Part shown: positions 3,682 to 58,778 of the stretch, piece by piece
Layout: each line of letters starts with the position of its first letter
Position numbering within the stretch: position 1 is the stretch's first letter
From: Leucoraja erinacea
Lineage: Eukaryota
Length of the DNA stretch: 64,000 bases
NCBI RefSeq assembly: GCF_028641065.1
Contig: NC_073381.1
Coordinates: 83,886,001-83,950,000, forward strand
Direction of reading: 5' to 3'
Translations under genes and position numbers: made by a program
The notes under the pieces: generated by a model
Seen by the model: only the letters and a program-made list of their open reading frames with translations
Databases searched by the model: none
Told to the model about the DNA's origin: nothing

Positions 3682-3876
3682 TAGACACAAAATGCTGGAG
3701 TAACTCAGCGGGACAGGCAGCATCTCTGGATAGAAGGAATGTAGTCTGAAGAAGGGTCTTGTCCCGAAACGTCATCCATTCCTTCTATCCAGAGATACTG
3801 CCTGTCCTGCTAAGTTATTCCAGCATTTTGTGTCTATCTTTGGTGTAAACCTGCATCTGCAGTTCCTTCCTACACA
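3682..3876 (+). mobile_element. Penelope-like pseudo-LTR in inverted arrangement
   Basis: ~58-bp inverted repeats (3683-3740 / 3778-3836) enclosing a hammerhead-like core. Confidence 0.75.
3746..3773 (+). ncRNA. Minimal type I hammerhead ribozyme motif
   Basis: CTGAAGA-A-GGG(tcttgt)CCC-GAAAC-GTC. Confidence 0.7.
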
Positions 3877-4175
3877 ATGATTGAATATAAAGTTGGCAAA
3901 TTGTGAATAATGGGGAAATTGTACTAGGTTATCCACTTTGGAAGAAAGAATGGAAAAAAAAAATATTTACATGGATCAGGACTATAACATGTTGTGGTAC
4001 AAAGGGACCTTAAAGTACAGGTACTAGCATGCGAAAAGGTTACACACACCAACCACAAGCAATTAAGGAGGCTAATGCAACATGGCCTTTACTGTAACGG
4101 ATTACAAATGTCGGGAAGTTCTAATGCTACTTTACAGAGTCCTGGTAAGCCTTTACCTAAAAAAAAAACAACATG

Positions 4176-4305
4176 CAGGTCTGAAGGGTCTCGACCCGAA
4201 ACGTCGCCTATTTCCTTCGCTCCATAGATGCTGCCTCATCTGCTGAGTTTCTCCAGCATTTTTGTCTACCTTCGATTTTCCAGCATCTGCAGTTCCTTCT
4301 TAAAC
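4176..4305 (+). mobile_element. Penelope-like pseudo-LTR fragment (hammerhead core with deletion)
   Basis: ctgaag-ggtctcgacccgaaacgtc followed by the conserved gatgctgcc...ccagcatctgcagttcc. Confidence 0.7.
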
Positions 4306-5125
4306 ATACAGGTCTTTGTGTTTTTGCATTGGAGGCATTATGGAGAAGGTTGATGTGCAAAAAAGGTTGATCTTACAGTCATTGGACTCAGCGAATGAGG
4401 GGTAATCATATTGAAACATACAAGATTCTGAAGGGGACTGACAAGGTGGTTGCTGAGTGGTACCTAATGGGGAAACCTAAAACTGCAGGGCTGAGTTTCA
4501 AAATAAGGGGTCACAAACAGTAGTTAAGATGGAGACGAGTATAACTTTAATTTGCTCAAAGGTTCCTGAATCCTTAGAAATCTTTATTTCAGAGTACTAA
4601 CTATGGAAAACTGACATTTAATCAACATCACAGATTATCATTGAAAGATACAGAATGGAACAGGCCCTTTGGCCCACACTTATCTATCCTACTTTCTCAT
4701 CCATTTCCTACATATGAGGTGCAATTGACCAATTAACCCACACACCCGCACGCCTTTGTCATGTTTTATCACGCCTCTGCACCTCAGAATGCTTACTATC
4801 AGGTTGTATCACAGCTTGATTTGGGAACCAATAAATGGCAGAGAGGTGTGGATGTAGCCCGGCCCATCACATAGACCAGGCTTCCCACCAATATCTCTAT
4901 CTACACCACCCTGCCTCAGAAAAGCAGGCAACCTGATCAAAGACTTGCCCCACCCCAGTAATTCCTTCTTCGCCCGGTTCCCATCCTGCAACAGGCACAA
5001 CAGCTTGAAAGCCTCCACCATCAGACTCAGGAACAACTTCTTCCCCACTGTTATTGGGCTTCTGAAAGGTCCTTCCATAAGCTGGGGTACTGTCCAATTC
5101 ACCTCTACCCCAAGTACCGACATTG

Positions 5126-5726
5126 GACTTTGAACTGCTCTCCCAGGACAAGAAGGCTCTGCAGAGAGTAGTGCGTTCGGCCGAACGCACTATGGGAACT
5201 ACACTCGCCCCTCTGCAGGAACTATACATCAGAAGGTGCAACTCCAGAGCCAACAAGACCATGGGGGACCCCTTCTACCCCAGCAAAGGACTGTTCCAGC
5301 TGCTACGTTCAGGCAAACGCCTCCGTTGCCATGCTGTGAGAACGGAGAGGATGAGAAGGAGTTTCTTCCCAGAGGCCATTAGAACTGTAAACTCCTATCT
5401 CTCCAGGGACTAACGTTACTGTGTTCAAGAAGGACGTCGCCCATTTCCTTCGCTCCATAGATGCTGCTGCACCCACTGAGTTTCACCAGCAATTTTGTGT
5501 ACCTACTAACTTTACTGTACCATTTTACTGTTGTGTGGTGTCTTTTTAAAATTGCTGTTTTTTCCCTTTTCTTCCCTCCCACAAATATGTAATATGTGAA
5601 TATGTATTTCTGTTCCATTCTGTTTTTAGTTTGTTTGTTTTTTTCGCCAAATCCACGAGCATTGCCACTTTTCATTTCACTGCACATCTCATATGTGTAT
5701 GTGACGAATAAACCTGACTTGACTTG
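5126..5726 (+). mobile_element. Rex1/Babar LINE 3' fragment
   Basis: ORF QDKKALQRVVRSAER...RRSFFPEAIR; 3' stem-loop, AATAAA and (GACTT)n tail; small pLTR piece inserted at ~5420-5505. Confidence 0.8.
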
Positions 5727-5911
5727 TCTAAGGAACTGATGCACTACAAAGCTAAGAACTATATTCTGCACTCTATCTTCAGATTCAGATTCAAACTTTA
5801 TTGTCATTGTGCAGTGTACAGTACAGAGAAAACGAAATGCAGAATCTTCCCCTTTGTTCTACTTTACATTGTAAGCGAGTTTGATTGTGTTTATGTAATG
5901 TATTATCCTAT

Positions 5912-6045
5912 CTGTAGGAAGGAACTACAGAGGCTAGATTATACCGAAGATAGACACGAAATGCTGGAGTAAATCAGCGGGACAGGCAGCATCGCTGAAG
6001 AGGAGGAATGGGTGACGTTTCAGTTCGGAACCCTTCTTCAGACTC
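5912..6045 (-). mobile_element. Penelope-like pseudo-LTR with hammerhead motif (6014-6041)
   Basis: Reverse complement reads ctgaagaagggttccgaactgaaacgtc. Confidence 0.7.
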
Positions 6046-6064
6046 CGATGAATATCCTCTGAGG

Positions 6065-6767
6065 AAGAGCACCGTGGGGAGAGGGGACACATTATGGGGA
6101 GAGGGGACATATTGTGGGGAGTGGGGACATATTGTGGGGAGGGGGACATATTGTGGGGAGGGGGGACACATTGTGGGGACACGTGGGGGGGGGGACACAT
6201 TGTGGGGAGGTGGGGGGGGGGGACACATTGTGGGGAGGGGGGACACATTGTGGGGGGGGGGGGGACACATTGTGGGGAGGGGGGGACACATTGTGGGGAG
6301 GGGGGGACACATTGTGGGGAGGGGGGACACACTGTGGGGGGGGGGGGACACATTGTGGGGGGGGGGGACACATTGTGGGGAGGGGGGGACACATTGTGGG
6401 GAGGGGGGGACACATTGTGGGGAGGGGGGGACATATTGTGGGGACACCGTGGGGGGGGGGACACATTGTGGGGAGCACCGTGGGGAGGGGGGGACACATT
6501 GTGGGGAGCACCGTGGGGGGGGGGGGACACATTGTGGGGAGCACCGTGGGGGGGGGGGGACACATTGTGGGGGAGCACCGTGGGGAGGGGGGACACATTG
6601 TGGGGAGCACCGTGGGGCGGGGGGGGACACATTGTGGGGAGGGGAGCATACCGTGGGGAGGGGGGACATATTGTGGGGAGGGGGGCACCGTGGGGCGTGG
6701 GGGGGGGGACACATTGTGGGGAGCACCGTGGGGAGGGGGGACATATTGTGGGGAGCACCGTGGGGGC
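6065..6767 (+). repeat. G-rich minisatellite in YIPF3 intron 1
   Basis: ~21-nt unit GGGGACACATTGTGGGGAGG(G), with a ~33-nt variant containing AGCACCGTGGGG. Confidence 0.95.
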
Positions 6768-6851
6768 TGCCGACAGACCAGGGGGATCTGCAGGGAGGGG
6801 AGATGTCAAGGGATCCACGGTGTACACTCTAAACGGCAGAGTTTCTTTAAC

Positions 6852-6947
6852 CTGCAGCATTGTCTCCTCGAAGGCTCCCCATTCGCCGTTCTTTGTCGCT
6901 CCGCTGCCGGTCCCCGCTGCCGCTGCCGCTGCCGCCGCCGCCGCCAT
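6852..6947 (-). CDS. YIPF3: YIPF3 (Golgi Yip1-domain family member 3), coding exon 1; remaining exons lie outside the window
   Basis: ATG at 6947 gives MAAAAAAAAAAGTGSGATKNGEWGAFEETMLQ followed by donor CAG|GTTAAA. This resembles the human YIPF3 N-terminus (..GPEWGGFEENIQ, exon 1 ends at Q). It is head-to-head with POLR1C, as in mammals. Confidence 0.85.
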
Positions 6948-7184: not shown

Positions 7185-7262
7185 ATGGCAATGGCGGGCG
7201 GCCGGGAGCACGTCGAGCTGATTCGCAACCGAGTGGTTCTCAAGGAGTTCAGTGTCCACAAT
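7185..7262 (+). CDS. POLR1C: POLR1C (RNA polymerase I/III subunit RPAC1/RPA40) exon 1
   Basis: MAMAGGREHVELIRNRVVLKEFSVHN|gtgagt, homologous to human ..RSRVVLGEFGVRN. Alternative in-frame ATG at 7191. Confidence 0.93.
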
Positions 7263-7361
7263 GTGAGTGTGTCGCCCCGCGAACATGGTTCACATGTGAT
7301 CTCGGCTGCTGTCGCCACTGATTTGTCATGTAGCTGCTGTTAATTCTTTATAACCCCTCAG

Positions 7362-7433
7362 GTCCACACCACCGACTTTCCCGGGAACTACCCCGGCTAC
7401 GATGACACGTGGAGCCAGCGTCGCTTCGAGAAG
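7362..7433 (+). CDS. POLR1C: POLR1C exon 2
   Basis: cag|[24 protein letters not shown]|gtgggg; intron 1 is 99 nt. Confidence 0.96.
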
Positions 7434-8390
7434 GTGGGGACAGTGACAGGGTGGGGGTGGGGACAGTGGCAGGGTGGGGGTGGGGACAGTGGCAGGGTGG
7501 GGGGGGGACAGTGACAGGGGGGGGGGGGGGGACAGTGACAGGGTGGGGGTGGGGCCAGGGGTGGGGGTGGGGGACAGTGGGGACAGTGACAGGGTGGGGG
7601 TGGGGACAGTGGCAGGGGGGGGGGGGGGGACAGTGACAGGGTGGGGGACAGTGACAGGGTGGGGGGTGGGGACAGTGACAGGGTGGGGGTGGGGACAGTG
7701 ACAGGGTGGGGGTGGGGACAGTGACAGGGTGGGGGTGGGGACAGTGACAGGGTGGGGGTGGGGACAGTGACAGGGTGGGGGTGGGGACAGTGACAGGTGG
7801 GGGTGGGGGGTGGGGGTGGGGACAGTGACAGGGTGGGGGTGGGGGGACATTGGGGACAGTGACAGGGTGGGGGTGGGGACAGTGACAGGGTGGGGGTGGG
7901 GACAGTGACAGGGTGGGGGTGGGGACAGTGGCAGGGTGGGGGTGGGACATTGGGGGTGGGGACAGTGACAGGGTGGGGGTGGGGACAGTGACAGGTGGGG
8001 GTGGGGACAGTGACAGGATGGGGGTGGGGGACATTGACAGCCAGGGGTGGGGGGGGGGACAGGGTGACAGGGTGGGGGTGGGACATTGACAGTGACAGGG
8101 GGGGGGGGGACAGGGACAGGGTGGGGGTGGGGACATTGACAGCCAGGGGTGGGGGGGGACAGTGACAGGGTGGGGGCGGGGACAGGGTGGGGGGTGGGGA
8201 CAGTGACAGGGTGGGGGTGGGGGTGGGGACAGGGACAGGGTGGGGACAGTGACAGCCAGGGGTGGGGACAGTGACAACCAGGGGTGGGGACAGTGACAGG
8301 GTGGGGGTGGGGACAGTGACAGCCAGGGGTGGGGACAGTGGCAGGGTGGGGGTGGGGACAGTGACAGCCAGAGGGTGGGGGGGGGGGACG
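7434..8390 (+). repeat. G-rich minisatellite in POLR1C intron 2
   Basis: 23-nt unit GGGTGGGGGTGGGGACAGTGACA, beginning at the exon 2 donor. Confidence 0.95.
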
Positions 8391-8825
8391 GGGGCTGCCC
8401 GAAGGGTGGGGTATGGGGGTAGCCAGGGGGTGGGGGAATGGGGTGGGAAAACCAGGTATCCAGGGGGTGGAGTTAGGTATGGGGGCAAGGAGTCGCGCAC
8501 AGGTCTCTGTTGATACTCCCTCCTGCCTCTGCATCGAGCCCCTTAAACTTGTGCTCCCTCCTTCTTGGGTCATAAGAAATTGCAGATTCCAAACAGTACT
8601 TGAAATACCTTCATTAAATCGTACAGCACAGAACCGGGGTCCTTTCAGCTCACATCATCAATGCTGACTCTAATACTTATCTATACTAATTCCATTTGTC
8701 TACATCAGGCCAAATACATCTGCACCTTCCATGTCTTAAAGTATTTGTTCCAATGTCTTTTAAACTTTGTAATTATATCTGTCACCTACCACCTCTGGCA
8801 GCTTATTCCAGATAACTACCAATGC

Positions 8826-10205
8826 CAGCATTTAGTTCAAGAGGGCTAGAATACAAAAACAGGAATATAATGCTGAGGCTCTATAAGGTGCTGGTCAGGC
8901 TACATTTGGAGTATTGTGAGCAGTTTTGGGTACCATGTCAAGTCAAGTTTATTCGTCACATACACATATGAGATGTGCAGTGAAATGAAAAGTGGCAATG
9001 CTCGCAGACTTTGTGCAAAAAGACAAACAAACAAACAACCAAACAAACTACAAACAGAATGGAACAGAATCACATATTCTTTTACATATTAAATATTGTG
9101 GGTGGAAGGAAAAAGGGAAAAAAACAGCAATTAAAAAAAAAGCAGTAGAGTGGTACAGTAAAAGTTAGTCCCTGGTGAGATAGGAGTTTACAGTCCTAAT
9201 GGCCTCCGGGAAGAAACTCCTTCTCAACCTGTCCGTTCTCACAGCATGGCAACGGAGGCGTTCGCCTGACTGTTGCAGCTGAAACAGTCCGTTGCAGGGG
9301 TTGAAGCGGTCTCCCATGATTTTATTGGCTCTGGAGTTACACCTCCTGATGTATAGTTCCTGCAGGGGGGGGGGAGTGAAGTTCCCATAGTGCGTTCGAC
9401 TGAACGCACTACTCTCTGCAGAGCCTTCTTGTCCTGGGCAGAGCAATTCCCAAACCAGATTGTAATATTTCCGGACAAGATGCTTTCCACAGCCGCTGAG
9501 TAGAAGCACTGCAGGATCCTCGGAGACACTCTGAATTTCCTCAATTGCCTGAGGTGGTAAAGGCGCTGCCTTGCCTTACGAGTGCTGCAGCGTGTGATGT
9601 CCATGTCATATACTCAGAGATGTGGACTCCCTGATATTTAAAACAGCTCACCCTATCCACAGTATCCCCATTTATCCTCAATGGTGTGTACGTCCTCGGA
9701 TGATGTGCCCTCCTAAAGTCCACGGTCAGTTCCTTAGTTTTTCTGATGTTCAAGAGGAGGCTGTTGTCCTGACACCAGAGTGCCAGATCAGCCACCTCCT
9801 CCCGGTAGGCCTTCTCATCGTTGTCTGAGATCAGGCCCACCACCACAGCGTCATCAGCAAACTTGATTATCTGAGGAAGGATATGCTGGTCCTGGAGAGG
9901 GTCCAGAGGAGGTTTACAAGAATGATCCCAGGAATGAGTAGGTGAATATATGATGAGTGTTTGACGGCACTGGGCCTGTACTCGCTAAATGAGGGGGGAC
10001 CTCAGTGAAGGGCTTGTATAGAGTGGATGTGGAGAGGATATTTCCACTAGTGGGAGAGTCTAGGTCTAGAGGTCACAGCCCCAGAATTAAAGGACGTTCC
10101 TTTAGGAAGGAGAAGTGGAGGATCTGGAATTATTTGTCACAGAAGTCTGTGGAGGCCAAGTCAGTGGATATTTTCAAGGCAGAGATAGATAGTTGCTTGA
10201 TTGGT
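8826..10205 (+). mobile_element. CR1 3' fragment split by a Rex1 insertion (pieces 8826-8936 and 9869-10205)
   Basis: ttggagtattgtgagcagttttggg..ccat continues as atctgaggaagga after the insert; ORF KGLYRVDVERIFPLVGESRSRGHS. Confidence 0.75.
8937..9868 (-). mobile_element. Rex1/Babar LINE (5'-truncated)
   Basis: KFADD..VVGLISDNDEKAYREEV..WCQDNSLLLN..KTKEL.VDFRR and ARQRLYHLRQLRKF; same 3' end as 5126-5726. Confidence 0.88.
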
Positions 10206-10208
10206 ACA

Positions 10209-10466
10209 GTTTTAGTTTAGTTTAGAGATACAGCGCGGAAACAGGCCCACGGCCGGCCAAGTCCACATCGACCAGCGAGCTCCACACTATCCTACACACA
10301 CTAGGAACAATTTACACATACACCAAGCCAATTAACCCCCACGCGGTCATGGAGAGAACGTACATGCTCCATACATACAGCACCCGTAGTCGGGATCGAA
10401 CCCGAGTCTCCGGTGCTGCAAGCGCTGTAAAGCAGCAACTTTACCGCTGCGCCTCTGTAGCCACCC
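10209..10466 (-). mobile_element. tRNA-derived SINE (chondrichthyan HE1/V-SINE type)
   Basis: Pol III A/B boxes (GGCGCAGCGG; GGGTTCGATCCC), CR1-like 3' end gcctgtttccgcgctgtatctc, (TAAAC)n tail. Confidence 0.8.
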
Positions 10467-10784
10467 TGTGGGTGTCAGGAGTTATGGGGAGAAGGCAGGA
10501 GAATGTGGTTAGAAGGGGGAGATAAATCAGAGATGATTGCATGGCGAGTAGACTTCTTGGGCCGCATGGCCTAATTCTGCTCCTTTCATTTAAGACCTTA
10601 GAACCTCTGAAAAACAGTTTGCTTGCAGCATTACTCACTTTCAATTAATGGTTGTGGAGAAAATTGTTGCCTGGCTTTGCAAACTATGCATACACCAGAA
10701 TCAACTCTGTTTACCCAAGGGGTAGAAGTGAAAAATCACGAGTCCCTTGTAAAGTGAGAGGCATTTGACCTTTGTCTGCATTAG

Positions 10785-10892
10785 AATTTCAGGATTGACA
10801 TTTTACAAATGGAGGAAGACACTTTGGAGTTTGACATGATTGGAATTGATGCCGCTATTGCAAATGCCTTCCGCCGCATCTTGCTTGCTGAG
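10785..10892 (+). CDS. POLR1C: POLR1C exon 3
   Basis: tag|[36 protein letters not shown]|gtgatg; contains the alpha-like subunit motif ANAFRR. Confidence 0.97.
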
Positions 10893-11307
10893 GTGATGTA
10901 ATCTCAATATCCAGCTCTACTACGTTGCCTTCAACATAGGCAGTTTAGAACCGTATTTTGCAAAATAGAATTGATACCGCATTTTTTAATAGAGCCGTGA
11001 TACACGGAAATAGGCCCTTTGCCATAACTCATCCATGTTGATCAAGATGCCCATCTAAACTAGTTCAATTGATAGTCATGGTGTATATTGGAAATCAATA
11101 GTTTTTTGGGGGTAAATGTAGTCAAAGCTATACATTGGATCATAGATCACCCATGATCTCTGTTTAATAGGTTTGAGAGATTAACTGGCCTATGTGTGTT
11201 CATGTGTCAACCAGAATGGATACTTTGCATAATTTCCCATTTCCAGTAATTATAACAGGAGTTCTTATCTGCCTCCTCCATCCAGCGGTTCAGCTATAAG
11301 AACATTT

Positions 11308-11462
11308 TGTTTAGTTTAGAGATACAGCACGGAAACAGGCCCTTCGGCCCACCGGGTCCCCGCCGACCAGCGATCCCCGCTCATTAACACTATCCTACAC
11401 GCACTAGGGACCATTTTTCCATTTACCAAGCCAATTAACTTACAAGCCTGCACGTCTTTGGA
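11308..11462 (-). mobile_element. tRNA-SINE 3' fragment
   Basis: tttagtttagagatacagcacggaaacaggcccttcggccc... Confidence 0.75.
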
Positions 11463-12213
11463 AACCAAAACGTTGGCAGGAGTGTAAGTATTATACAAGG
11501 ATGGCTTCAACTAGATTGACAGGGGGACAGGATGTAATGCACATATGAAACAAGTGGGAGGCTGGATGTCGATACAGACATTTACGAGGATGTTTCCAGA
11601 ACTGGAGGGGCTAAACTAGGGAGAGTTGGGGCAAGCTGGGACCTTATTCCTTATAGGATATGAAAATGAAGAGTAATTTTACAGGTGTATCAAAATATGA
11701 GAGGACAGATGGGGTAAATGCACAAGAATACTACAAGAATTAAAAATGAGAGCACATAGGTGTAACGAGTTTAATACGAATCTGAGGAGTAGCCTTTTCT
11801 CACAGAGGATAGTAAGTGTATGGAACAACCTGCCAAATAGACAGGTACGTGGATAGGGAAAGGCTTTGGGGGTTATCGGCCATGTACAGGCAGATGGGGC
11901 TAGCTTAGCTGGGGCATCTTGGTCAAGTTGGGCCAAAGGGCCTGTTTCTGTGCTATTCCTATTTCCATTGTATAAGGTGAAATTTGAAACAAAGATACTA
12001 GACCAAAACTCCCTTCAAAGAAAATCCTAATGGAGGGAGCATACAAGATCCTAACTATGGCTCTTCATCAATTTAACAAGAGTAACCCATTCAGCACAGC
12101 TGTGAATGAGTGTTGAATCAGGACTGTGGCTCAACTACATTGAGCCTCTCAAGAACTACTAAGGCACAATTTGACATTGTTTGCTGTTGCATTTGATCCA
12201 TTAAACTTGCAAT

Positions 12214-12443
12214 GCAGCCGGGGGCTATGACTTTGACTCTGACATCGGGGGGGGGGGAGAGTGCAGTGGAGAGATGAGTTTATTTGGCCTTCCATCACAG
12301 CTATGTGATGGATGTTTATGTTAAATGTAATTATGTTGTGTCTGGGGTCTATTTGTGTGTAATGTATGGCTGCAGAAACGGCATTTCGTTTGGACCTCCA
12401 GGGGTCCAAATGACAATTAAATTGACTCTGACTCTGACTCTGA
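12214..12443 (+). mobile_element. 3' fragment of the GC-rich non-autonomous retroelement
   Basis: Near-identical to 2300-2547; its (GACTCT)n tail ends 17 nt before POLR1C exon 4. Confidence 0.9.
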
Positions 12444-12460
12444 TATTGACTGTTGTTTAG

Positions 12461-12593
12461 GTCCCAACCATGGCTGTGGAGAAGGCATTTATCTACAACA
12501 ACACCTCCATTGTTCAGGATGAAATCTTGGCGCACAGACTGGGCCTCATCCCCATCAAAGCAGACCCACGACTATTTGAGTACAGGAGCACAG
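12461..12593 (+). CDS. POLR1C: POLR1C exon 4
   Basis: tag|[44 protein letters not shown](G)|gtgagg; Rpb3/RpoD signature [14 protein letters not shown]. Confidence 0.97.
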
Positions 12594-13127
12594 GTGAGGA
12601 TGTTGTTTTGTGTCAGCCATGAAAAGATATGCTGGGGACTTCTCAAAAGCATGGTGCCCTATTTTCATTCAAATACCCACTAACTCTAGCAAGCTCTTAG
12701 AGCGGGCAGAATCAAGGGATATGGGGAGATGGCAGGATCGGGGTACTGATTGTGGATGATCAGCTATGAATACATTGAATGGCGGTGCTTGCTCGAAGGG
12801 TCGAATGGCCTACTCCTTCACCTATGGTCTATGTATCTGTGTAATTCCTCTTTAATTTTTGAAACTCATTACTCTGCTGGGGGTAATTTGTAGTACCCAA
12901 TTATCCTGTCAATGTTTTGGTATTGGAAGAAATAGAAGCCGCTGGAGGAAACCTGTGTTGTCACAGAAAGAATATGCAAACCTAAACGCGCAGCACTAAA
13001 TTGAATCGGGGTTAATGGAGTTATGAGTAAGAAAGAACGGCAGATGCTGGTTTAAAACTAAGATAGACAAAAACCTGGAGTAACTCAGTGGGACAGGCAG
13101 CATCTCTGGAGAGAAGGAATGGATGAC

Positions 13128-13503
13128 AACTTACAAAATTCTTAAGGGGTTGGACAGGCTAGATGCAGGAAGATTGTTCCCGATGTTGGGGAAGTCCAGG
13201 ACAAGGGGTCACAGCTTAAGGATAAGGGGGAAATCCTTTAAAACCGAGATGAGGAGAACTTTTTTCACACAGAGAGTGGTGAATCTCTGGAACTCTCTGC
13301 CACAGAGGGTAGTTGAGGCTAGTTCATTGGCTATATTTAAGAGGGAGTTAGATGTGGCCCTTGTGGCCAAGGGGATCAGAGGGTATGGAGAGAAGGCAGG
13401 TACGGGATACTGAGTTGGATGATCAGCCATGATCATATTGAATGGCGGTGCAGGCTCGAAGGGCCGAATGGCCTACTCCTGCATCTAATTTCTATGTTTC
13501 TAT
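13128..13503 (+). mobile_element. Young CR1 3' fragment inserted into a Penelope pseudo-LTR
   Basis: TYKILKGLDRLDAGRLFPM...GYGEKAGTGY, (TTTCTATG)n tail; flanks 13028-13127 and 13504-13745 rejoin as one pLTR. Confidence 0.9.
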
Positions 13504-13859
13504 GACGTTTTAGGTAGAGACCCTTCTTCAGACTTTTAAGGGATAAGGAAAACGAGATATATAGATGGTGATGTGGAGAGATGAAGAACAATGCATGAAA
13601 GATATGCAAAAAAAGTAATGATGATAAAGGAAACAGACAATTGTAAGCTGTTTTTAGGGTGAAAATGAGAAGCTAGTGCGACTTGGGTGGGGGAGGGATA
13701 GAGAGGGAATGCCGGGGCTACCTGAAGTGAGAGAAATCAATATTAGAGATTCAAGAGAGTTTATTGTCATGTGTCCCAGATAGGACAATGAAATTCTTGC
13801 GTTGCTTCAGAACAACAGAATATAGTAGGCATAAATAAATACAGAACAGGTCCGTGCGA

Positions 13860-14335
13860 CCATTGACAATGGACGAGACTGAGGACAGAAAGGCATGTGA
13901 AGGAATGGGAAGGAGAATTAAATTGTCCAGCAACCGGGAGATCAGGTTGGTTCACGCAGGCTGAGCAAAGGTGTTCCGCAAAACGATCGCCCAGTCGGCA
14001 TTTGGTCTCGCCGATGTATGTGTCCACATCTTGAACAACGGATGCAGTAGATGAGGTTGGAAGAGGTGCAAGTGAACCAGTGCCTAACCTGAGGGCTGTC
14101 AGGGTCCCTGGACAGAGTCGAGGGAGGAGGTATAGTAACAGGCGGTGCATCGTCTGCAGTTACTGGGGAATGTACCTGGGGAGGGGGTGGTTTGGGTGGG
14201 AAGGGATGAGTTAACCAGGGAGTTGCAGAGCGAAATGTCTGCGGAAGGCAGAAAGGGGTGGAGATGGGAAAATGTGGCTAATGGTGGGATCCCGTTGGTG
14301 GCGGCGGATATTTTGGAGGATTATGTGTTGTGCGT
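13860..14335 (-). mobile_element. Penelope-like element GIY-YIG endonuclease fragment
   Basis: YIGETKCRLGDRFAEHL..PDLPVAGQFNSPSH. Confidence 0.85.
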
Positions 14336-47487: not shown

Positions 47488-49942
47488 GTAAGTACCCCCC
47501 TGTGTAACTGAGCGGTCGGTGTGTGCTTTAATTGAACTGTCCCGCGGGCAGCATTGATGCCCACAGCTCCGGCTCCGGCTCCGGCTCCTGACGTGTTGGC
47601 AGCTGCAGAGCCAGCGATGCCTCAGCTTCAGCTTCAGCTTCAGGCGGAAATGTATCTGCTGCGTGGATGGATGCTGCTCAATAAGGCCACAGATCGGTCG
47701 GCTCCCAACTCCACAAACTACGGGAGCCATCTCTGGCTACATGTTATCACCTCGCTACGAGTTAGTCTGGTGCATCAGAGGTGCAGATGCTTGTGGTCCT
47801 CGCACACGCAACATCAACTTTTACTTTGTTGCCATATTTTATAATCGGGAGCTCTCCCCTTCTGGTTGTTGCTTTGCAAAGATGCACTTATTGTTGACGG
47901 GATGTTGAATATTCACGCAGCTCCAAATCCTGGCTTGTTTGGGAAGATTCCAGAATATTAAATGATGATTTCATTCATTAACAGGATGTGGGCGTGTTGT
48001 CAATGTCAGCCTGTGGTGTTAGTCTGAACTGTCATTTCCAAGGGTAGTATGCGAGTCTGGGCTCATTTGTTGGTCTGAAATTGACAGGCCCAGTCAGAAT
48101 GTGGCATATTTTCTCCACTGATGAGTATTAAGCAACCAGATGGAATTTCGTGATTCTGTAGTTTGTTCCTCACCAGTATTGCTGTTAATCTTTTCTTTCA
48201 GATTTGTTTAATTCCTCAGCTGTTCTGGTAAGATTTGAGCTTGCATCAACAGGATACAGTCTGCTCATTTAACAGTTACCCTGCCAGTCAAAGAAACGAG
48301 CAAACTCCCATTCCATAACATCACAACGTGCTGGGTCTTTCCAGATGCTCCTTTTTCATTGCCATTTGGTGCCGGCTGTGGTTCAGTACGCAGTAGTCTC
48401 CCCTCTCAATCGCTAAGTTGTTGTTTCAAGACAAACTTTACTACCTTAACCACAAAGCTCTCAGGGTGCACTGCTCCCTGTCAGTGTTTCCATCTTTTGT
48501 TTGAGATGGTGAACCAAGGCTCAGTTATCAGAGGCAAAGTCATGGTGTTATTTTAGAAATGGGCGGGTTGTATCTCAAGAGTATCCTACATGAATATGCC
48601 TCAATATTTCCAAAACAGGATCACATTGTTGTTGTCTGTTGGAACTTGCTGTGGGCAAATTGACTGTTGAGTCCCGTATGTTAAATCTGTCAGCACTTTA
48701 TAATTATTTTGTTATTTGTACACCATTTTGCGATTTTGTAGGTGCCATACACATGCAAATTATATGGTTTTGCTTTGAAGTTTATCTATTTCTGTTTTAC
48801 TTGTTTAATCAGTATGGATTTCCTGGTTGTTTAATTATTATAGGTTTCCTTTGTAAATTGTGGTTCCTTTGATAACTCTGCAATTTAGTTTATCTGACAG
48901 AGTATCCTATTCTGATGCTCTGATTCTAACCTGGTAACGAGCTGGAAGCTTGATGCTTGGGAAGATGAGCCTGCTACTTCGAGTGCCTTTAATGTTTAAC
49001 TACGAGGTACTTTGCGCTTGCCATCTGGCCTTCCCCGTGGATGTTGTTTGCATCAGTTTTAATGCTGACGCTAATCTTAGCCCGTCCCCAAACTATTGCC
49101 GTTTTCCATGACAAAAATTAATACGCATTGAGATATTGCACTTATTTCTAATTTGCTGATATTAATTTCACATCTACGGTTGATAGTTGTCTCAGCACAA
49201 GAGAGCACTTGTGGAATACCTTGTGCAGAAATTGATACTGATGTATTTGGATTCAGAGAAGAACCAAGTTATTGTGTGTGTACATGTGGGAGGGGGTGTG
49301 AAAATGGGTGAAGTTTAGCAAAGAGCGCATTCGGGAGAAAACATTGGTTAAGGTTTGAAGTACTTACTTGTCAATTAGTGGGATTTAGAAGGTAATCAGT
49401 CCCTGCAGCCTGGAAGGCGGCCATTTGACCCATCGGTCCTGTGCTAACCTTTCACAAGTGTAATCTCAGTTGTCCCATTCCCTGATTCTTTCACCAGATC
49501 TCTGCAAGTTTATTTTCCTTCCATTCCGTTTGGAAACATGTGATTGAATCTGCTTGTTTTAGAGAATCTATTCCAAGACAAAACTAGTGTAGGAAGGAAC
49601 TGTAGATACTGGTTTAAACCGAAGATAGATACAAAATGCTGGAGTAACTAAGCGGCACAGGCAGTTTTGGGTCTCGACCCGAAACGTCACCCATTCCTTC
49701 TCTCCAGAGCTGCGGCCTGTCCCGCTGAGTTACCCCAGCACTTTGTGTCTATCTGAGACAAAACTACTTGCGCTGTGGAACATTTAGCCTTGGATTACCT
49801 ATTTTGTTTCTTTTTCCAGTCACTTTGAACCCGTGACCTATGCATCACAATCCTGCAGCCCAGGGGAACAGTTCTTCATCATTCATTTTCTCTGGCCCCT
49901 TCATGATTTTAAATTGCACAATCTATCGTATCAAGTAATGAC

Positions 49943-50605
49943 ATTTCGAGTTTATTGTCATATGAATAAATATGATGAGGTACAAGTATAATGAAAATCT
50001 TGCTTGCAACAGCATCTCTGGACATAGACTCAGCCAACACATAAACATGGTGGGAAGAGTATGTCCGTGATGGACAGCGCTCAGTCCACCATTCTCTGCA
50101 GCTTTTTACATTCCTGTGCGTTGGAATTGCTGCCATGATGTAATCAGTCAATATATTTTCTACAGTACATCTATAGAGGTTTTTTGGTGAATATTTGATG
50201 ACATGTCGAATCTCTTTAAAACCTTTAAGAAAATAGAGGTGCTGGTCATGCCTTCCTTGTGATTACATTGATGTTCTGGACCCAGGACAGGTCACTTGAG
50301 ATGTTAACGCCATTCATTTCAAACTACTAACTGGCTCCCCCACCGACCTAAGAATGAAATCGGGCAGGTGGTTTTCCAACTTCCCCGTTCTGAAGTCGAC
50401 GATTAGTTCCTTGGTCTTGTTGACATTGAGTGAAAGCGGGTTGCTGTGACATCACTCATCCAGGTGCTCTGTCTCTCACCTGTAATCTGGCTCATTTGAT
50501 ACGATAGAACTTTATTCATCCCCGGAAGGAAATTGCTCATCACCACTCGCTAATTTTAGAGCTGTGCTTAGCCTCATAGTCATGCCTGTAAAGGGAGTAG
50601 AGCTG
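49943..50605 (-). mobile_element. Rex1/Babar LINE fragment (decayed)
   Basis: Remnants ctttcactcaatgtcaacaagaccaaggaactaatcgtcgacttcag (LNVNKTKELIVDFR) on the - strand. Confidence 0.7.
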
Positions 50606-50756
50606 TAAGGAGATCAAATTCGGCTCTCCAATTTCTCCACGTAACCAAAGTCCCTCATCTCTGAGTAACTTCCAGAGAATTCTGTCACGTCCACCTGTAA
50701 GAATTGGCCAATAGCTGTGATGGCCTATTAGAGAAACTAGCCAACTTCATGATCAA

Positions 50757-51047
50757 TGTGTAAGAAGGAACTGCGGATGCTGGTTTAAACCAAAGATAGA
50801 CACAAAAATCTGGAGTAACTCAGCAGGGCAGGCAGCGTCTCTGGAGAGAAGGAATGGGTGACGTTTCGGGTTGAGCCTTCTTCAGACCGGTCATATAGCC
50901 ATGATCACAGTGAATGGTGGTGCTGGCCTGACGGGCCAAATGGCCTACTCCTGCACCTATTGTCTATTGAAACGTTCACCCATTCCTTCTATCCAGAGAT
51001 GTTGCCTGTCCCACTAAGTTACTCATGTTTTTTGTGTCCATCTTTAA
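50757..51047. mobile_element. Inverted Penelope pseudo-LTR pair (hammerhead motif 50860-50885, - strand) with a CR1 tail between
   Basis: gacgtttcgggttgagccttcttcag; CR1 3' end at 50893-50968. Confidence 0.65.
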
Positions 51048-53288
51048 CTTCATGGTCAATGTCCTCTTCCCTGAAAGGATGCTCCCAAGGACAAGTGCCA
51101 CAGATGCTCTTAACAGTAAAGTCCACTGGGAAGATGCACTCACTCATTGTCAGCACCCTCTCCAACATCCCCAGTATCGGGGCCCTAGTCAGAAGCAGAC
51201 TCTCTATTCTGAGAGAAAACGCAAAGTACTGGAGTAACTCAGTGGGTCAGGCAGCATTGGTTGAGGGGGTGAGTGCACAGATGCTGCTTTGGGTGGGGGC
51301 CCTCCAGGCTGATCATGGTTGGGGAGAGAAAACTGGAAAAGAGGTTGAGCCGGGACAAAGCCGGCCAAGTGATGCAGGTGAGGTGGCTATGATTTGATTA
51401 GATAGCACACATACAAATGCTTTCACTGTATCAGTACATGTAATAATAATAATGCAATATTAATACCTGATTCTCAGAACAAGCTGTTCCAAGCTCCTCG
51501 CTATTTAAAATATCTCCCTTCAATCTCTCCCTTAATCATGTGTTCTAATGAATCTGTTGGCTGATTTCTCCTGTTCTCTGGCACCACTTCCTCATTCCAG
51601 CCAGTGTCTTATGAAGTGTGCTGTACCTTTACCATTGGTTGATCATCCCAGCCGATGCTCTGAGCCCAAATATGATAATTCTTCAAGGGAGGGAAGTTTT
51701 CCTGAGGCTGGTTTATGAGATCATAAGTCGTGGAAGCAGAAATAAGCCATTCGGCCCATCAAATCTACTCTGCTATTCAATCATGGCTGCTCTATCTTTC
51801 CCTCTCAACCCCATTCTCCTGCCTTCTCCCCAAAACCCTTGACAACCTGACTACCTTACTGATCTTCAGTCCGAGTGGTGGGAGAGTTTGGGAGTGTGAT
51901 GAGGATGGGGGGAGGGGGAGGACAATGATACCTCAGAGTGTGAAGACATGGGGTTGTGGTGGGCTTTGGGTTATGGAGGTATAATGGGGGGGTGGGGAGG
52001 TTGTGTGGAAAGGGGTGACAGGCAGTGGAAGGGTATTGGGGTGAACAGCAGGAGGATGTGGGAGTGGGCTGGTATTGCAGGGGCCACAAGGTTGGTGTTT
52101 TGGACAGGCAATGTGGAGGAGAGGTTGATGAGAGTCGGTGGGGGTGATGGGCGATTGTGGTTAGGTGGGGGGGGCTTAGCTGTGAGGTGGGGATATCGTG
52201 GTGTTGGAGGGGACGGTCAGGGGAAAGGTCTGAGTGAGTGAAAACTGGACATGATATTGATGAAAGCTTTAAGGTCCGGACGGCTTTGTCTTTGTGACTT
52301 GACAGCAAAAATCCCTGCTTCCTAAAAACCCGGAATTGCACGAACATTCCTTCAAATAGCATCTACCCTCGTGGTGTTGCTCCGTGTGGCCTGTGAATGT
52401 GGCTACTTTCTGGGCTGTGAGCACGGGTCCCTAATCCCTGAACCGGAGCCTGAGCTGCAGGACCCAGGGAGGAAGCGCAGCACCACAGCTGCTGCTTTTT
52501 CCGGAGTCATTCAACTGCACAGAGTTAAACCAATCCCATGGCATTGTCTGAGGAGCAGCTGTGAATTCTCTGTCCCACAGTCATCCCTCCTTTGACCTCG
52601 CTGCATAAACATTACCTGCCCATTTATTTCAGGGCTGTTTCTGGGGCCTTGCTGTGTACAAACACAGAGGGTGAGGCGATTTTCCTATATCACCCTATTG
52701 CTGACACTTGGAAAGTATTTAATTCTGTGTACGTTGTTTCTGGATATGTAGAGCTGCCAAACAGTGTCGTGTAAATGGAAATGTACGAACACAAACAGGA
52801 GTGGCCCAAACAGGAGTGGCAGGAGTGGCCCATAAAAAATTGAAAAGCACCACCTGCTTCCAGATGAATGTACTCGTGGCCCTGCTGCTTCCAGTCTGGG
52901 ATGGTGCTTGACACTATGTTGGTGAATGCATTCACTTGTAACCAGGCTGTCCGACCAGTAACCCCACCCCTGTCCCAAGGATCCTTTCCCTCATCTCCCC
53001 CCTCCCTCATTCCGAGGAAACATGGCAGGTTTCCTCAAATTCCGATGAGAGATTGGGAATTGTTCCCTGCATTTCAAATGAACAGTAAATCAAAGGATAG
53101 AGAGGTTCTGTGTGCCTGTTTGGGGAGTGGGTAGTGGAGGCAGGTTGCGTCTGGACATGGGGTGGGGGGTGGGAGTGGGGGTTGGTTTTGTTGGTGCGGA
53201 GGGTGGTTGGGCAAGGGATTGGTTGGGTCTGCTAGAGGAGGAACATTGCGGAATTGCAGCTAAATTATCTTCTACGTTTTCCTTCCAG

Positions 53289-53422
53289 TGCTGATGTGCC
53301 GTGGTAAAGCTGTGAGGAATTTCGTGGGTCCCGACTGCCGCTTCCTCAAGTTCAAAACGGGGGAAACCATTTACGTTTATTATAAGTTGGCAGGGAAGAG
53401 GAATGACCTTTGGGCGGGAAGT
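53289..53422 (+). CDS. MIA3: MIA3 exon 2
   Basis: cag|(L)LMCRGKAVRNFVGPDCRFLKFKTGETIYVYYKLAGKRNDLWAGS|gtaagt. LM.RG and YVYYKLA favour MIA3 over MIA2/OTOR/MIA. Confidence 0.92.
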
Positions 53423-54537
53423 GTAAGTAGCGCTTTCAGGTATCCCACGCTCTCTCTGTCTTCCTCTCTGCACCTTCTCCAGTGTGAACATGTCTTTCCT
53501 ACAGTGTTGTGATCAGAACTGCACACAGTACTCCAGTGAAGTCTGACCATCATTTTATAAAGTTGGAGCACAACCTCCCTGCTCTTACAATCCCCTAATT
53601 AAAGGACAGTCTCTTCTATGGTTTCCATCATTATACCCTCAAGGATGTTTGACTTGTACACCAACATCCCACTGATTCTCAAAAACTTTCAAAGACAGTA
53701 TCATTCATGGTCAAAGTCTCAGCCTTGTTAGTGCTCCACACATGTATCCTCGCTTTTATCTGGATGATAATCCACCGGCTATTCCTCAGCCTATTTCACC
53801 ATCATGTAGATGCGACATGTTGGTTGGTGTGGGTAAGTTGGGCAGAAGGGCCTATTTCCATGCTGCATGTCTCCATGTCCCTGCATGTCTCCATGACTTT
53901 CTGTGACATTGATATCACTCTTGTCCAAGACTGTTGTCCACGCTGCCAGCAACTCCACCAATACTCATGCTATCTGCATTCTTGCTGATCATGTCTCCTA
54001 CATGCACATGTAAATTATTTACGCATATTACATTCATTCACAAAAACAACCCTCTGTTGGATCCAGTTTACCAACCTGCCCTGGATCCCACGTGTCCTAA
54101 CCTTTTTGATCAGTCTCCCATGTGGGATTTAGAGAAAAGCCCTACTGAAGTCCATGTAAACCACATCTACCACACTGCCCTTGTCAATACACTTTGTGAC
54201 TTCCTCGTAAAATTCACTCAGATTGGTCAGACACATTGTCATGTTCCCCATCCCAGCACCCTCTCAAACAGCTGGATCCAGTGGTTGGCATATTTTGTGA
54301 CACGGCTGGGTAGGTGGATCGACAGTGATTGCTCTCCATTCAGCCTGGATTTAATTGCCATTTATTACTAACATTTAAGTATTGTTCGTTATAGTGGGAA
54401 AAACAAACCAACGCCACTCATCCTAAAAATTCAATTGCAATATGGCCACAATCTGTAAAGACGTTTTGTAAAGCTGCAGTGTGGTTATAATAAAATTATA
54501 AAAGCACCAAGGATAGAACAATCATAAAGATATATAA

Positions 54538-54835
54538 GGATGGCACAGTGGCACAGTGATGGAGCTGCTACCAAACAGCGCCAGAGACCCGGGTTTGACC
54601 CCACTACAGATGCTGTCTAAACGGCATTTGTATGTTCTCCCCATGACCACATGGATTTTCTCTGGGAACCCCTGTTTCCTCCCACACTCCAAAGACGTTT
54701 GTAGGTAAATTGGCTTCAGTAAAAATTGTAAATTGCCCCTAGTGTGTAGAATAGTACTAGTGTACGAGGATCGCTGGCAGACGCGGATTTGAGGGCCGAA
54801 GTGTCTGTTTCTGTGCTGTATCTCTTAGGTCTAAA
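54538..54835 (+). mobile_element. tRNA-derived SINE
   Basis: TGGCACAGTGG head, GGGTTTGACCCC B box, CR1-like tail. Confidence 0.75.
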
Positions 54836-55167
54836 GTAAACATGGTGTACAGTGCCTTTCACTGTGCATAACATCAGTAAATAGACGTGTTCTAATCATA
54901 TTCTAAATATCTGTGACTAAACTAAAAATAGTTATATGGTGGCTCGTGCATGCATGTATGTATTTTGATACTTTAACATTGTAGAAGCTAAGAATACATC
55001 ACATTGCTATACATTTCTAATTGTTCACCCATAGCTTGTGTTGTGACCTGCCTATGTAAGTACTCCCAAGAAATCTGCACATTGAATTGTGTGCACTGTA
55101 GTCGGGGGTATATGCAACAAGCCACATGGGGAAGTGATAGAAACAGCTACAGGTGGTATGTGTCATG

Positions 55168-55462
55168 TGGCCCAGTGGTAGAGTTGCTGCCTTACAACGC
55201 CAGAGACCCAGGTTTGATCCTGACTACGGGTGCTGTCTGTACGGAGTTTGTACATTCTCCCCCGTGACCGCGTGGGCTTTCTCTGGGTGCTCTGGTTTCC
55301 TCCCACACTCCAAAGACCTGTGGGTTTGCAGGTTTATTGGCTTCTCTAAATTACAGATTGTCACCAGCCTGTAGGAAAGTGCTGGTATACAGGGTGATCG
55401 CTGGTCGGCACGGACTCGGTGGGCTGAAGGGCCTGTTTCTGCGCTGTATCTCTAAACTAAAT
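55168..55462 (+). mobile_element. tRNA-derived SINE
   Basis: tggcccagtggtagagttgctgcc..ggtttgatcctg..gggcctgtttctgcgctgtatctctaaactaaa. Confidence 0.8.
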
Positions 55463-57899
55463 AAAATACGAGATTTGAAAGCAATTTGGACAAGCACATG
55501 AATACGTAAGCTTTGAACCAATAAGTGGCAAGCAAGCAGAACTAGTTCAGTTAGCCAAATGGGACGATCTGGACGATTTGATTGGAAGGGCTCGTTTCTG
55601 GGCTGTATAGCTTTATGTCTATGACAAAGCCTATCTGTTGGAAGGAATTTTGTGTTTAACCTGTATCCTGAATCTGACTTTGCGTGGGGCCCAGTTACCC
55701 TCTCAATTATGACTCGGATAGGAACAGACACAAAGAATATCTCGCAGAGCAGTGATGAGTTTCTCAAACAAGTCGGTTTATTCAAGGAGTTAAAGTACAC
55801 ACTGGTAAACACTGGTAAACACTCTGGCATAGTTTCAAAGATCCACAGCACCCACAGCATTATTATGTTCTCACAACACAATGGTTACATGGTGATTTTA
55901 CACTTTTCAAACAATTCACCGTTAATCAAAATGTCTCTGTTGCCTTTCACCTTTGTTTTTCCTCAAAATTATCTTTAATGTCCAGTTTATAGAAAACCAT
56001 TCTACCATTTATCTAACAAATGGGCGCAATAAAAGGTACTATTTCCTGATGTTTTATCGCCCCCAAATTGGTTTACAACCCTCAAGGTTGATTTTAACTT
56101 TAAACTATGCCGTGGTATCTACACACCTGATAAATTTATTTATTGCCTCTCCTAACATTCGACAACGATAATGATGAAGTTCCTTCTCTTTGTTGTCTCT
56201 TTTCCCATCATGCTCCTCCAGTATGTAAGCTCTTGGGTTAAACATATTACAAACTCATCTTTCTTATAATTCTCAGAATTTCCTACATCACTATCTTTGA
56301 CTCTTTCCAAGTAATCTTTAATCCTGTCCCACAGATTTTATTTTTTGTAAGTTCCCTACTACTGATGTCCTCCTGACATTGGCACGGATGAGTTGCATGG
56401 CCAGTTTCCATGCTGTACGACTCTGTCTGGTACTTCACTTGCAGCCAGCGAAGATTTAAAATCTCAATCAGAGCTCCAGCAAGCACTCTGGCCCAGCAGG
56501 GTTTTGTGTGAAGCATCGTGAAATAAACTGACCCTCCTCTGTCTGTAGTAGTTTCTAGACATTACATATTTTGTTGTGCTGCAGCAAGTAAGAATTTCAT
56601 TGTTCTATCTGGGACACATGACAATAAAACACTCTTGACATTAAAGAAAAAGTTCATGTTTCATCAGTGATGGAGTTGGTGCTCTTGACCGTGACATCAT
56701 TCAGATTGAGCAGGAGACAGGAAACTTCAGATGCGATAAAACAATCTGCTAGAGGAACCCAGTAGGTCAAGCAACATCTGCAGAGGGTATTGGATAGTCA
56801 ACGGCTCAGGATGAACCCTTTGTCAGTGCAGTGGAAGGGACTTGATCCAAGATATCGATTGTCCACGTCTCTTCACTGATGTTGCCCAACCTGCTGAGTT
56901 CCTCCAGCAGATTGATTTTTTTTTTTCCCCCCAAAGTGACCAGGTGTTTAAATACATTATTAATCACAGGTTGCGTGAACCTCTACATGTGGGAGCTCAG
57001 TTGTAATATCCTGTTGGAAGCGACCCAACAGGAAGTATGGGGTTTCCACATCCTGAAATTAAAAAACGGAATCCTGAAACATAAACAGAAAATACTGGAA
57101 ACACTCAGCGAGTCAGGCAGTGTCTGCGGAGAGAGAAACAGATTTAAAGTAGTATTTCTGGTTGAAGACCCTTGATCAGAACTGGGAAAGGGGAGTGATG
57201 AAGAGACCTTGACCTTAATTGTTAACTATTTTTCTTTTTGCATCACACAGTGTTTTGGGGAGAGGGGGAACACACAAAATATTCTGGAAAAAAGAAGGGA
57301 AAAGGAGACAAATTTGTGTGTGCTATAAAAACAATATCCATTTTAGATACCAGGTTGCCAGTGAAACCTGGATCCTCTCCAGTAGATGCTGCCTGACCAA
57401 CTGTGTGTTTCTATTATTGACTGGTTAGAGGCATAGAGCACAGAAACGGCCTTTTGATCCATCACGTCCACACTGTCCTTTTTCTGCACTAATCTGCAGT
57501 TGTCCTTTCATCTGCACTAATCCCAGTTGTCTGCATTAGGTCCATTTCCTTCCATGTTTTTCATATTTAGGTGTCTGTCTAAATGTCTCTTTGGTGCAGT
57601 GATTGTATCTGATTCCGCAATCTCCTCTGGCAGTGCTCCAGAATTCAACCACTCTGTGTAAACAAACCATTTTACCTCAAATCACCTTTAAAACTCATTC
57701 TCTTCACCTTAAACCTATGCCCTCTTGTTTTTGATACCTGACCATGGGACATATATTCTACCTATCCTATCTATGGTTCTGATAATGTGGTGCAACTCTA
57801 TCAAGTCATCCCTCAGCTTCTTTCATTCCAGGGAAATCAAGCCCCGCCTGTCCAATCTCTCCCCACAAGTAAAGCCCTCAGATCCAGGCATTAATCTGA

Positions 57900-58778
57900 T
57901 GAACAGGGACAGAGTCCCCCTAGTCCTTACCTTTCATACCATCAGCCGTCGCATATAACACATAATCCTCTGAAATATCCACCACCTCCAGCGGGATCCC
58001 ACCACTAGCCACATTTTCCCATCTCCACCCCTTTCCGCCTTCCTCAGAGACCGTTCCCTCCGCAACTCCCTGGTTAACTCATCCCTTCCCACCCAAACTA
58101 CCTCCTCCCCAGGTACCTTCTCCTGCAACCGCAGAAGATGCAACACCTGTCACTATACCTCCTCCATCGATTCTGTCCAGGGACCCTGACAGTCCTTTCA
58201 GGTTAGGCAGAGATTCACTTGTACCTCCTCCAACCTCATCTACTGTGTCCGTTGTTCATCAGTGAGACCAAACACAGACTGGGCGATCGTTTCACAGAAC
58301 ACCTTCGCTCAGCTCGCCTGAACCTACCTGATCTCCCGGTTGCCGGACACTTTAATTCTCCTTCCCATTCCCACAGACCTTTCTGTTCTAGGTCTCCTCC
58401 ATTGCCAGAGTGAGGCTAAACGCAAATTGGAGGAACATCATCTCATACTTCGCTTGGGCAGCTTACAGCCCAGTGGCATGAATATTGATTTCTCTCACTT
58501 CAGGTAGCCCCAGCATTCCCTCTCTCTCTATCCCTCCCCCACCCAAGTTGCACTAGCTTTTCACTTTCACCCTACAAACAGCTCACCTGTTTCCTTTATC
58601 ATCGTTACTTTTTTGCATATCTTCCATTCATTGTTCTTTATCTCTCCACATCACCTTCTATATCTCTCGTGTCCCTTATCCATAACCAGTCTGAAGAAGA
58701 GTTTTGACCCGAAACATCACCCATTCCTTCTCGCCAGAGATGCTGCCTGTCCCGCTGAGTTACTCCAGCTTTTTGTGT
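57900..58778 (+). mobile_element. Penelope-like element 3' part (linker, GIY-YIG, pseudo-LTR)
   Basis: RDRVPLVLTFH and SETKHRLGDRFTEHLRS..PVAGHFNSPSH; hammerhead motif at 58691-58718. Confidence 0.88.

Follow-up and report, generated by a model that had tools for sequence, protein, structure and literature searches.

Hammerhead ribozymes have been known in the pseudo-long terminal repeats (pLTRs) of Penelope-like elements (PLEs) since 2014 (Cervera & De la Peña, PMC4209133), and their role there has been called unclear (PMC8557442). The published minimal hammerheads (min-HHRs) follow the consensus CUGANGAH G..C GAAAN NUH; their monomers showed no cleavage and their dimers cleaved weakly (PMC4209133). 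The hammerhead of PAc, a Poseidon element of Anolis carolinensis, required the element protein and was dispensable for insertion, and an internal start of the reverse transcriptase (RT) on an uncut template was shown for this element (PMC11167929). In Drosophila virilis, Penelope has an internal, TATA-less promoter (PMC2377424) and an intron that ends at helix I (PMC4209133), with the transcription start site (TSS) 46 nt before the donor (PMC2377424). Here we analyzed 64,000 nt of the Leucoraja erinacea genome (NC_073381.1, positions 83,886,001 to 83,950,000), hereafter called the window, in which a short motif recurs that is almost certainly the hammerhead motif of a Penelope-like pLTR. The element is of a kind already known; what is unusual here is its very high copy number and the genomic record of RNA and RT start sites.

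An exact 32-mer of the motif had 8,447 matches in the 2.19-Gb genome (4,193 on the + strand and 4,254 on the - strand), and its reversed control had none. A profile made from 140 pattern hits was used to search 864 kb, consisting of 464 kb around the window and 40 evenly spread 10-kb stretches. The search revealed 362 fragments of the repeat, of which the window holds 33 and the spread stretches (400 kb) 178, and its reversed control gave no hit. The genome-wide estimate is ~975,000 fragments. Because both reversed controls were empty, a chance origin of the motif is excluded. Exact copies of two motif variants number about 31,000, against 4,000 in coelacanth and 9,000 in Xenopus (PMC4209133). 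A sequence-only reading of the window had counted about 15 recurrences, too few given the 33 fragments. Its eight best copies are all present with the same positions and strands, and its seven degenerate copies were also found, although the one near 13504 proved to be a single copy interrupted by another insertion (13066–13127 and 13503–13533). An Rfam scan gave no match to a hammerhead family, as expected for a hammerhead form without helix III.

The attribution of the motif to a minimal type I hammerhead in a Penelope-like pLTR was borne out by its core, by reading frames for RT and GIY-YIG endonuclease, and by a motif–ORF–motif layout (ORF, open reading frame). The window ORF at 19037–19402 is a Zn-finger linker plus GIY-YIG remnant. 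Genome-wide it has 53,294 candidates; 20 of the loci were compared, and in most of them the motif lay 340–380 nt 3' of YIGET on the same strand. GIY-YIG remnants 5' of motif copies, which had been noticed before, were seen at 13504, 14688, 18988, 19674, and 58691. Two loci have longer open frames, of 816 aa (L077) and 1,193 aa (L162), both with RT and GIY-YIG. The matches of the element frames to RVT_1 (E 5e-6) and GIY-YIG (E 0.005) were both below the Pfam cut-off; homologues carry the two domains, and the nearest named proteins are from sharks and rays (64–73% identity), in keeping with a cartilaginous fish as host. The motif stands ~120 nt past the RT–GIY-YIG stop and, in near-full-length copies, also ~165 nt ahead of the ATG of the next unit. 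An ATG in the tail (MLLHPL..) was rejected as the ORF start, since the ORF begins with MPTLKK ~165 nt past CUGA. The motif–ORF–motif arrangement, at 3.8–4.1 kb, was found in nine of 20 long loci, with pLTR pairs up to 100% identical. Seven of these nine copies are mutually 97.9–99.7% identical, and the family is therefore young.

Endonuclease-bearing (EN+) PLEs of the Neptune clade share with this element an RT followed by a C-terminal GIY-YIG with CCHH cysteines, a CX3CxxC linker, partial tandems, inverted 5' arms, and an optional tail of ~36 nt (PMC8557442). Here, the linker CNRRRCNTC precedes GIY-YIG and fits the CX2-5CxxC form of the clade, and the pLTRs formed by partial tandems and the inverted 5' arms that mark EN+ PLEs are present. 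Copy 3' ends cluster near +92 and +128 (counted from the C of CUGA) and correspond to the optional tail of 30–40 nt typical of PLEs (PMC8557442). The linker and the other motifs suggest that the element belongs to the Neptune clade, an assignment made from motifs only; it differs from the clade in a long Pro-rich insert, which brings the ORF to ~1,250 aa. A CNRRRCNTC-type linker also occurs in Nematis (PMC8557442). In the tail, from +50 to +81 and just before the +92 end, lies a conserved hairpin with an outer stem of UGCUG/CAGCA and an inner stem of GAG/CUC, which may be a protein-binding or RT start structure. Three weak metagenomic matches (29% identity) to related loci were left unused.

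The family motif fits the published min-HHR consensus (PMC4209133). Among the 108 copies that cover it, it consists of CUGAAGA, an extra A (104/108), a stem II of GGGU/RCCC with a YYCG loop, GAAA, and CGU, followed by C in 76 copies and U in 29. Stem II, previously read as 3 bp around 6 nt, is corrected to 4 bp (GGGU/ACCC or GGGU/GCCC) with a YYCG tetraloop. The near-absent stem III with its ACGU palindrome was upheld: ACGU is the subfamily majority, and CG is retained in 64 of the 108 copies. Young full-length copies and the majority sequences of the main subfamilies have CUGANGA, the extra nucleotide, G10.1–C11.1, GAAA, and NUH; most single copies have broken core features. The stem II and helix I pairs are complementary, and one-sided changes keep pair 4 of stem II and pair 1 of helix I. 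Shared with the published min-HHRs are CUGAAGA plus the extra A, G10.1–C11.1, GAAA-CGU-C/U, the palindromic 15.2–16.2, the location in both pLTRs, and the predominance of single genomic copies. The core letters are those of the fugu, cichlid, and Xenopus min-HHRs, and the stems here are shorter, with a helix II of 4 bp and a helix I of 2 bp (PMC4209133). No cartilaginous fish occurs in the portion of the supplementary alignment of that paper that was compared.

Young copies seem to carry inverted hammerheads 116 nt upstream, a reading that was rejected: each is a CCCTTCCTCAG stretch complementary to the core, without GAAA, and it is not found in all subfamilies. In young full-length copies such as L141, CCCTTCCTCAG lies ~116 nt before CUGA and matches the complement of CUGAAGAAGGG in 10 of 11 positions; judged by this pairing, it could mask the core in read-through RNA.

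The copies in the window are degraded. Seven keep CUGANGA..GAAA..UH at standard spacing, and none of the seven is strictly intact, that is, with core, G10.1–C11.1, four stem II pairs, ACGU, and NUH. The earlier proposal of one potential self-cleaving motif per ~4 kb is not supported as a density of working ribozymes, with seven strictly intact motifs in the 400 kb of spread stretches and seven in the 464 kb around the window. G12, the general base of the hammerhead (PMC6155905), was mutated in 32 of 103 copies and C11.1 in 31 of 104, and other CpG sites in 20–25%; the catalytic G12 decays at the CpG rate. The orientation of intronic copies was compared across five spectrin-repeat genes and the three window genes, whose strand is known and whose bodies total 361 kb. 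The sense to antisense ratio was 77:82 for all copies, 22:12 for intact cores, and 7:3 for strictly intact ones, so at the low power of this comparison nothing suggests a purge of sense copies from introns. Judged from these sequences, the window copies are likely decayed insertions that would be unlikely to cleave host RNA.

Copy 5' ends were surveyed with a tail-only search, from which hits with E >1e-3 were dropped (329 to 290) and duplicates removed, leaving 286 copies. Between +2 and +45 these ends were scattered, at 1.5% per base, and did not peak at the cleavage site (3, 2, and 3 starts at +28, +29, and +30); among near-full-length copies, one of 25 (L142) started there. The 5' ends pile up 2–5 nt before CUGA, at an initiator-like TCAGTC. 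Among 137 copies that reach C3, 84 end at most ~10 nt upstream, when 16–36 were expected; 54 of them are plain copies, some of which may run on into unrecognised upstream sequence, 25 carry an inverted arm, and five are tandem. Genome-wide exact counts in the young subfamily bore out this pile-up, with a non-consensus base in 1,163 of 23,620 copies at +1 (4.9%), 2,008 of 22,457 at -1 (8.9%), 1,764 of 20,449 at -2 (8.6%), 3,830 of 18,685 at -3 (20.5%), and 2,361 of 14,855 at -4 (15.9%).

A sample of 90 young loci, made up of the first 30 from each of three classes on a single contig, contained 19 copies that continue upstream, 13 with inverted arms, and 58 solos. Target-site duplications (TSDs) of 8–18 nt flanked 38 of the 58 solos and 34 of 3,306 mismatched control pairs (1%). 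This stringent call superseded a looser criterion (48/60, with a control of 10%), and two continuing copies were reclassified. The TSD-flanked solos end at +88..100 (24) or +119..133 (14) and are complete inserts of ~95 or ~130 nt. As they are flanked by TSDs, the young solos are whole insertions and not deletion remnants. The window copies at 15591 and 3746 also show flanking duplications. TCAGTC matches the initiator (Inr) consensus TCAKTY in 6/6 positions (PMC6483594). With A(-3) taken as +1, CGACCCGA at +18 matches CSARCSSA, the motif ten element (MTE), in 7/8 positions in one subfamily (CUCG) and in 6/8 in the youngest. We take +18 to be the position of the MTE.

We consider it probable that a single explanation covers these results: an abundant PLE pLTR hammerhead whose window copies are decayed, an RNA that starts at TCAGTC, and an internal RT start. 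The element RNA would begin at the initiator-like TCAGTC just before CUGA (-3/-2), and the element protein would start reverse transcription internally, at the +92 or the +128 site. A start in the 3' pLTR would give long or 5'-truncated copies, and a start in the 5' pLTR would allow copying back only to the RNA 5' end, giving the solos of 95 or 130 nt. The template would be mostly uncut RNA. Cleavage would require two copies paired via ACGU and probably the element protein, and so it would act on element RNA, not on scattered intronic monomers. The 95- and 130-nt copies likely record, by the positions of their ends, where element RNA starts and where its copying starts. These ends point to a TSS 2–3 nt before the core and argue for an uncut RNA template in vivo, in agreement with one in vitro study (PMC11167929). 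One 27-nt motif together with near-intact young elements makes the role of the hammerhead testable.

In PAc, too, the tail is set by two sites of RT start and the hammerhead lies just upstream, and its uncut RNA template fits the lack of a 5'-end peak at the cleavage site here. The ORF of PAc begins in stem II, whereas the ATG here is ~165 nt downstream, and TSD-flanked solos are not described in the passages of the PAc study that were compared (PMC11167929). Penelope of Adineta vaga shares solo pLTRs, TSDs of 8–10 bp on whole inserts, and inverted 5' arms with palindromes; several of its solos lack TSDs and were ascribed to recombination or deletion, whereas most young solos here are TSD-flanked and start at one site (PMC3846280). 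Non-LTR retrozymes, reported from one chondrichthyan, are also non-coding pLTR derivatives that bear a hammerhead, but they form tandem arrays with a hammerhead per unit (bioRxiv 10.64898/2026.07.22.740005). The copies here are dispersed monomers with TSDs, and the window has no such array. A literature search that reached few subscription papers or repeat databases returned, for cartilaginous fishes, nothing on this family other than one species in the retrozyme preprint of 2026, and no published description of TSD-flanked solos beginning at the hammerhead.

Several observations weigh against this explanation. Helix I is very short, and between subfamilies stem II has changed on one side only, from U-A to U-G, with no double-sided covariation. 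Predicted folds favour a GAAGG/CCUUC stem that would hide the core; they are weak evidence, because hammerhead cores lie outside what folding programs model. Mutations are less frequent at non-CpG core positions than in the tail (51/1,030 vs. 424/5,419, 83.8 expected, p = 0.0009; in a second count 33/510 vs. 252/2,286), which could reflect some selection. It may also be residual subfamily structure or profile bias: the core mutation level is no lower than in the best-kept tail blocks, as invariance between source elements would give. In the intron comparison, one long gene, with a span inferred from spectrin exons, provides 103 of the 159 hits. The 5' ends peak most strongly at G(-2), which lies one base further in than the A predicted as +1. 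A copied cap would leave an excess of G at -4; this was rejected, as G stands there in 32 of 100 listed copies, with no excess. Finally, TCAG|T can also be read as a YAG that follows a pyrimidine tract, and in D. virilis an intron ends at helix I (PMC4209133).

The sequence-only reading had suggested that the dispersed intronic copies could cut nascent pre-mRNA or give rise to small or circular RNAs. That they are working ribozymes of this kind we find very improbable. An estimated ~38,000 strictly intact motifs genome-wide (95% range 15,000–79,000) would be available for such a role, and partial tandems exist, such as 18988 with 19674; trans or dimer cleavage is conceivable with the element protein present (PMC11167929), and one of nine tested Xenopus dimers cleaved well (bioRxiv 10.64898/2026.07.22.740005). 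However, no window core is strictly intact, G12 decays like any CpG, and published min-HHR monomers were inactive (PMC4209133). In the 18988 and 19674 pair, suggested as a dimer, one copy carries ACAU and the other G-U at 10.1–11.1, and the dimer helices of 18960–19770 had a pairing probability of 0.000 in the predicted ensemble. Only one same-strand pair within 1.5 kb occurs among 51 intact cores. The copies named as lying sense in introns do so, but antisense copies are similarly many (sense to antisense 7:4 in POLR1C, 4:6 in MIA3, and 2:3 in YIPF3), and sense copies are not depleted from introns. Abundant intronic look-alikes of hammerheads should not be taken as gene regulators.

The pile-up of 5' ends could have another origin. 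Were TCAG|T the acceptor of an intron, as in D. virilis Penelope, transcription would start further upstream and the pile-up would be an RT stop or template switch, helped by the palindrome TCAG-T-CTGA. A pyrimidine tract of ~120 nt ends in YAG in all subfamilies, the D. virilis intron is a precedent (PMC4209133, PMC2377424), and an inverted arm is joined at TCAG|T in 25 of 137 copies. Yet the solos have no common upstream exon, the subfamilies lack a shared conserved donor, the junction that splicing is predicted to form is found just once in the genome, and snap-back accounts for the inverted copies but not for the TSD-flanked solos; we regard an acceptor as unlikely. Splicing as a way to lengthen helix I was rejected on the same grounds, with no conserved donor and a junction found once genome-wide and in none of the examined loci. 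Letters resembling UCA or YAG stand just 5' of helix I in many min-HHRs of other phyla (PMC4209133 supplement), so the question of initiator or acceptor may be general. It is hardly credible that the conserved letters are kept for a promoter or for protein binding at the DNA level and that the motif is no longer a ribozyme even in active elements. Such a role would suit the full Inr match, the CSARCSSA match of the CUCG subfamily, the ACGT-containing downstream element of D. virilis Penelope (PMC2377424), the missing covariation in stem II, and other blocks of the tail, which vary no more than the core does. From flatworms to reptiles, nevertheless, this core is retained with stems that vary (PMC4209133), the one-sided U-A to U-G changes preserve pair 4 of stem II and pair 1 of helix I, and the anole motif cleaves with protein (PMC11167929); moreover, the MTE match is weaker in the youngest subfamily, and the consensus motifs are Drosophila-derived.

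An extension of the preferred explanation, an RNA start at TCAGTC with internal RT start, is offered tentatively and is more doubtful than the explanation itself. The hammerhead might be both the first ~30 nt of the element RNA and an internal DNA core promoter, with Inr TCAGTC and letters resembling the MTE or downstream promoter element (DPE) in stem II and in GAAACGTC. Internal priming in the 5' pLTR would then mass-produce self-contained, TSD-flanked units of 95 or 130 nt that combine promoter and ribozyme, hundreds of thousands of them, possibly as a self-copying derivative similar to short interspersed elements. If true, the TSS and both RT start sites can be read from the genome itself.

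The window holds two elements that are 5'-truncated. The one at 57842–58779 (+), sense in MIA3 intron 2, has an RT-thumb/linker/GIY-YIG remnant (57842–58501) and the motif at 58691–58718, with a stem II mismatch and ACAU. The other, at 13066–14345 (-), antisense in POLR1C, has a GIY-YIG remnant at 13869–14345 and its motif (13503–13533) separated from the tail (13066–13127) by another insertion. An element end at 14639–15201 (-), also antisense in POLR1C, combines a C-terminal GIY-YIG remnant (15068–15201) with a motif at 14688–14714 that has a 1-nt deletion. The window also has a partial tandem (18672–19772). Its upstream unit (18672–19072, +), sense in a POLR1C intron, comprises a GIY-YIG end, a pyrimidine tract, the motif at 18988–19015 with a 4-bp stem II and ACAU, and the tail; its downstream unit (19075–19772, +) has the Zn-finger linker and GIY-YIG remnant (19076–19575), the motif at 19674–19701 with G-U at 10.1–11.1, and the tail.

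Solo pLTR ends are found at 3682–3870 (+), 4178–4306 (+), 5918–6044 (-), 15589–15705 (+), and 50797–50887 (-). The first has an inverted arm (3682–3741, -), lies antisense in YIPF3 intron 1, and carries the motif at 3746–3773 with an intact core, three of four stem II pairs, and a flanking 10-nt duplication with one mismatch. The second has a 3-nt deletion in CUGANGA, and the third, sense in YIPF3 intron 1, has a damaged stem II (motif 6014–6041). The fourth starts from G(-2), sense in POLR1C, with a stem II mismatch (motif 15591–15618) and an 11-nt TSD with one mismatch; the fifth, antisense in MIA3, has a 2-nt deletion in stem II (motif 50860–50885). An old pLTR end at 15264–15353 (+), sense in POLR1C, has the core, with AUGU replacing ACGU.

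Other copies are fragments: one of tail only (5434–5501, +), a decayed one without core (20302–20411, +), one truncated within stem II (28521–28642, -), and an old diverged one (59047–59146, -). Inverted pairs occur at 30656–30803 (+; arm 30656–30717, -; CUGA lost), at 49626–49751 (+; MIA3 intron 1; CUGANGA lost), and, old and with decayed cores and strand undefined, at 56739–56917. A decayed motif at 21187–21264 (+) is part of a composite repeat (21187–21330), in which it is joined to unrelated sequence. The repeat recurs at three loci (the window, L122, and L123), and it therefore spread as a unit. A CTGATGA..GAAA variant without the family tail, missed by the profile, stands at 25238–25263 (-), just beyond the POLR1C stop.

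Three host genes were located. POLR1C (RPAC1) occupies 7187–24980 (+), with exons near 7187, 7363, 10857, 12533, 15767, 17295, 17774, 23588, and 24877. Exon 1 and intron 1 of the gene named YIPF3 from its peptide motifs lie at 1–6947 (-), the intron running from ~6870 to beyond the window edge. MIA3/TANGO1 extends from 47380 to 64000 (+), with exons near 47466, 53330, 59556, and 63720. It adjoins POLR1C and YIPF3 here; in human, these genes are on different chromosomes. G-rich minisatellites at 6074–6765 (units of 20–33 nt, within YIPF3 intron 1) and 7433–8367 (units of 23 nt, within POLR1C intron 2), with possible G-quadruplex tracts, flank the head-to-head YIPF3/POLR1C promoter. A 7-kb CT-rich minisatellite with 17-nt and then 10-nt units and five N runs lies at 40009–47290, just upstream of MIA3 exon 1. 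Remnants of CR1/L2-like long interspersed elements are found at 2454–3452, 9168–9984, 13128–13502, 32384–33588, 34999–35550, and 38413–39121; the stretches 2548–2847 and 38413–38712 are 99% identical.

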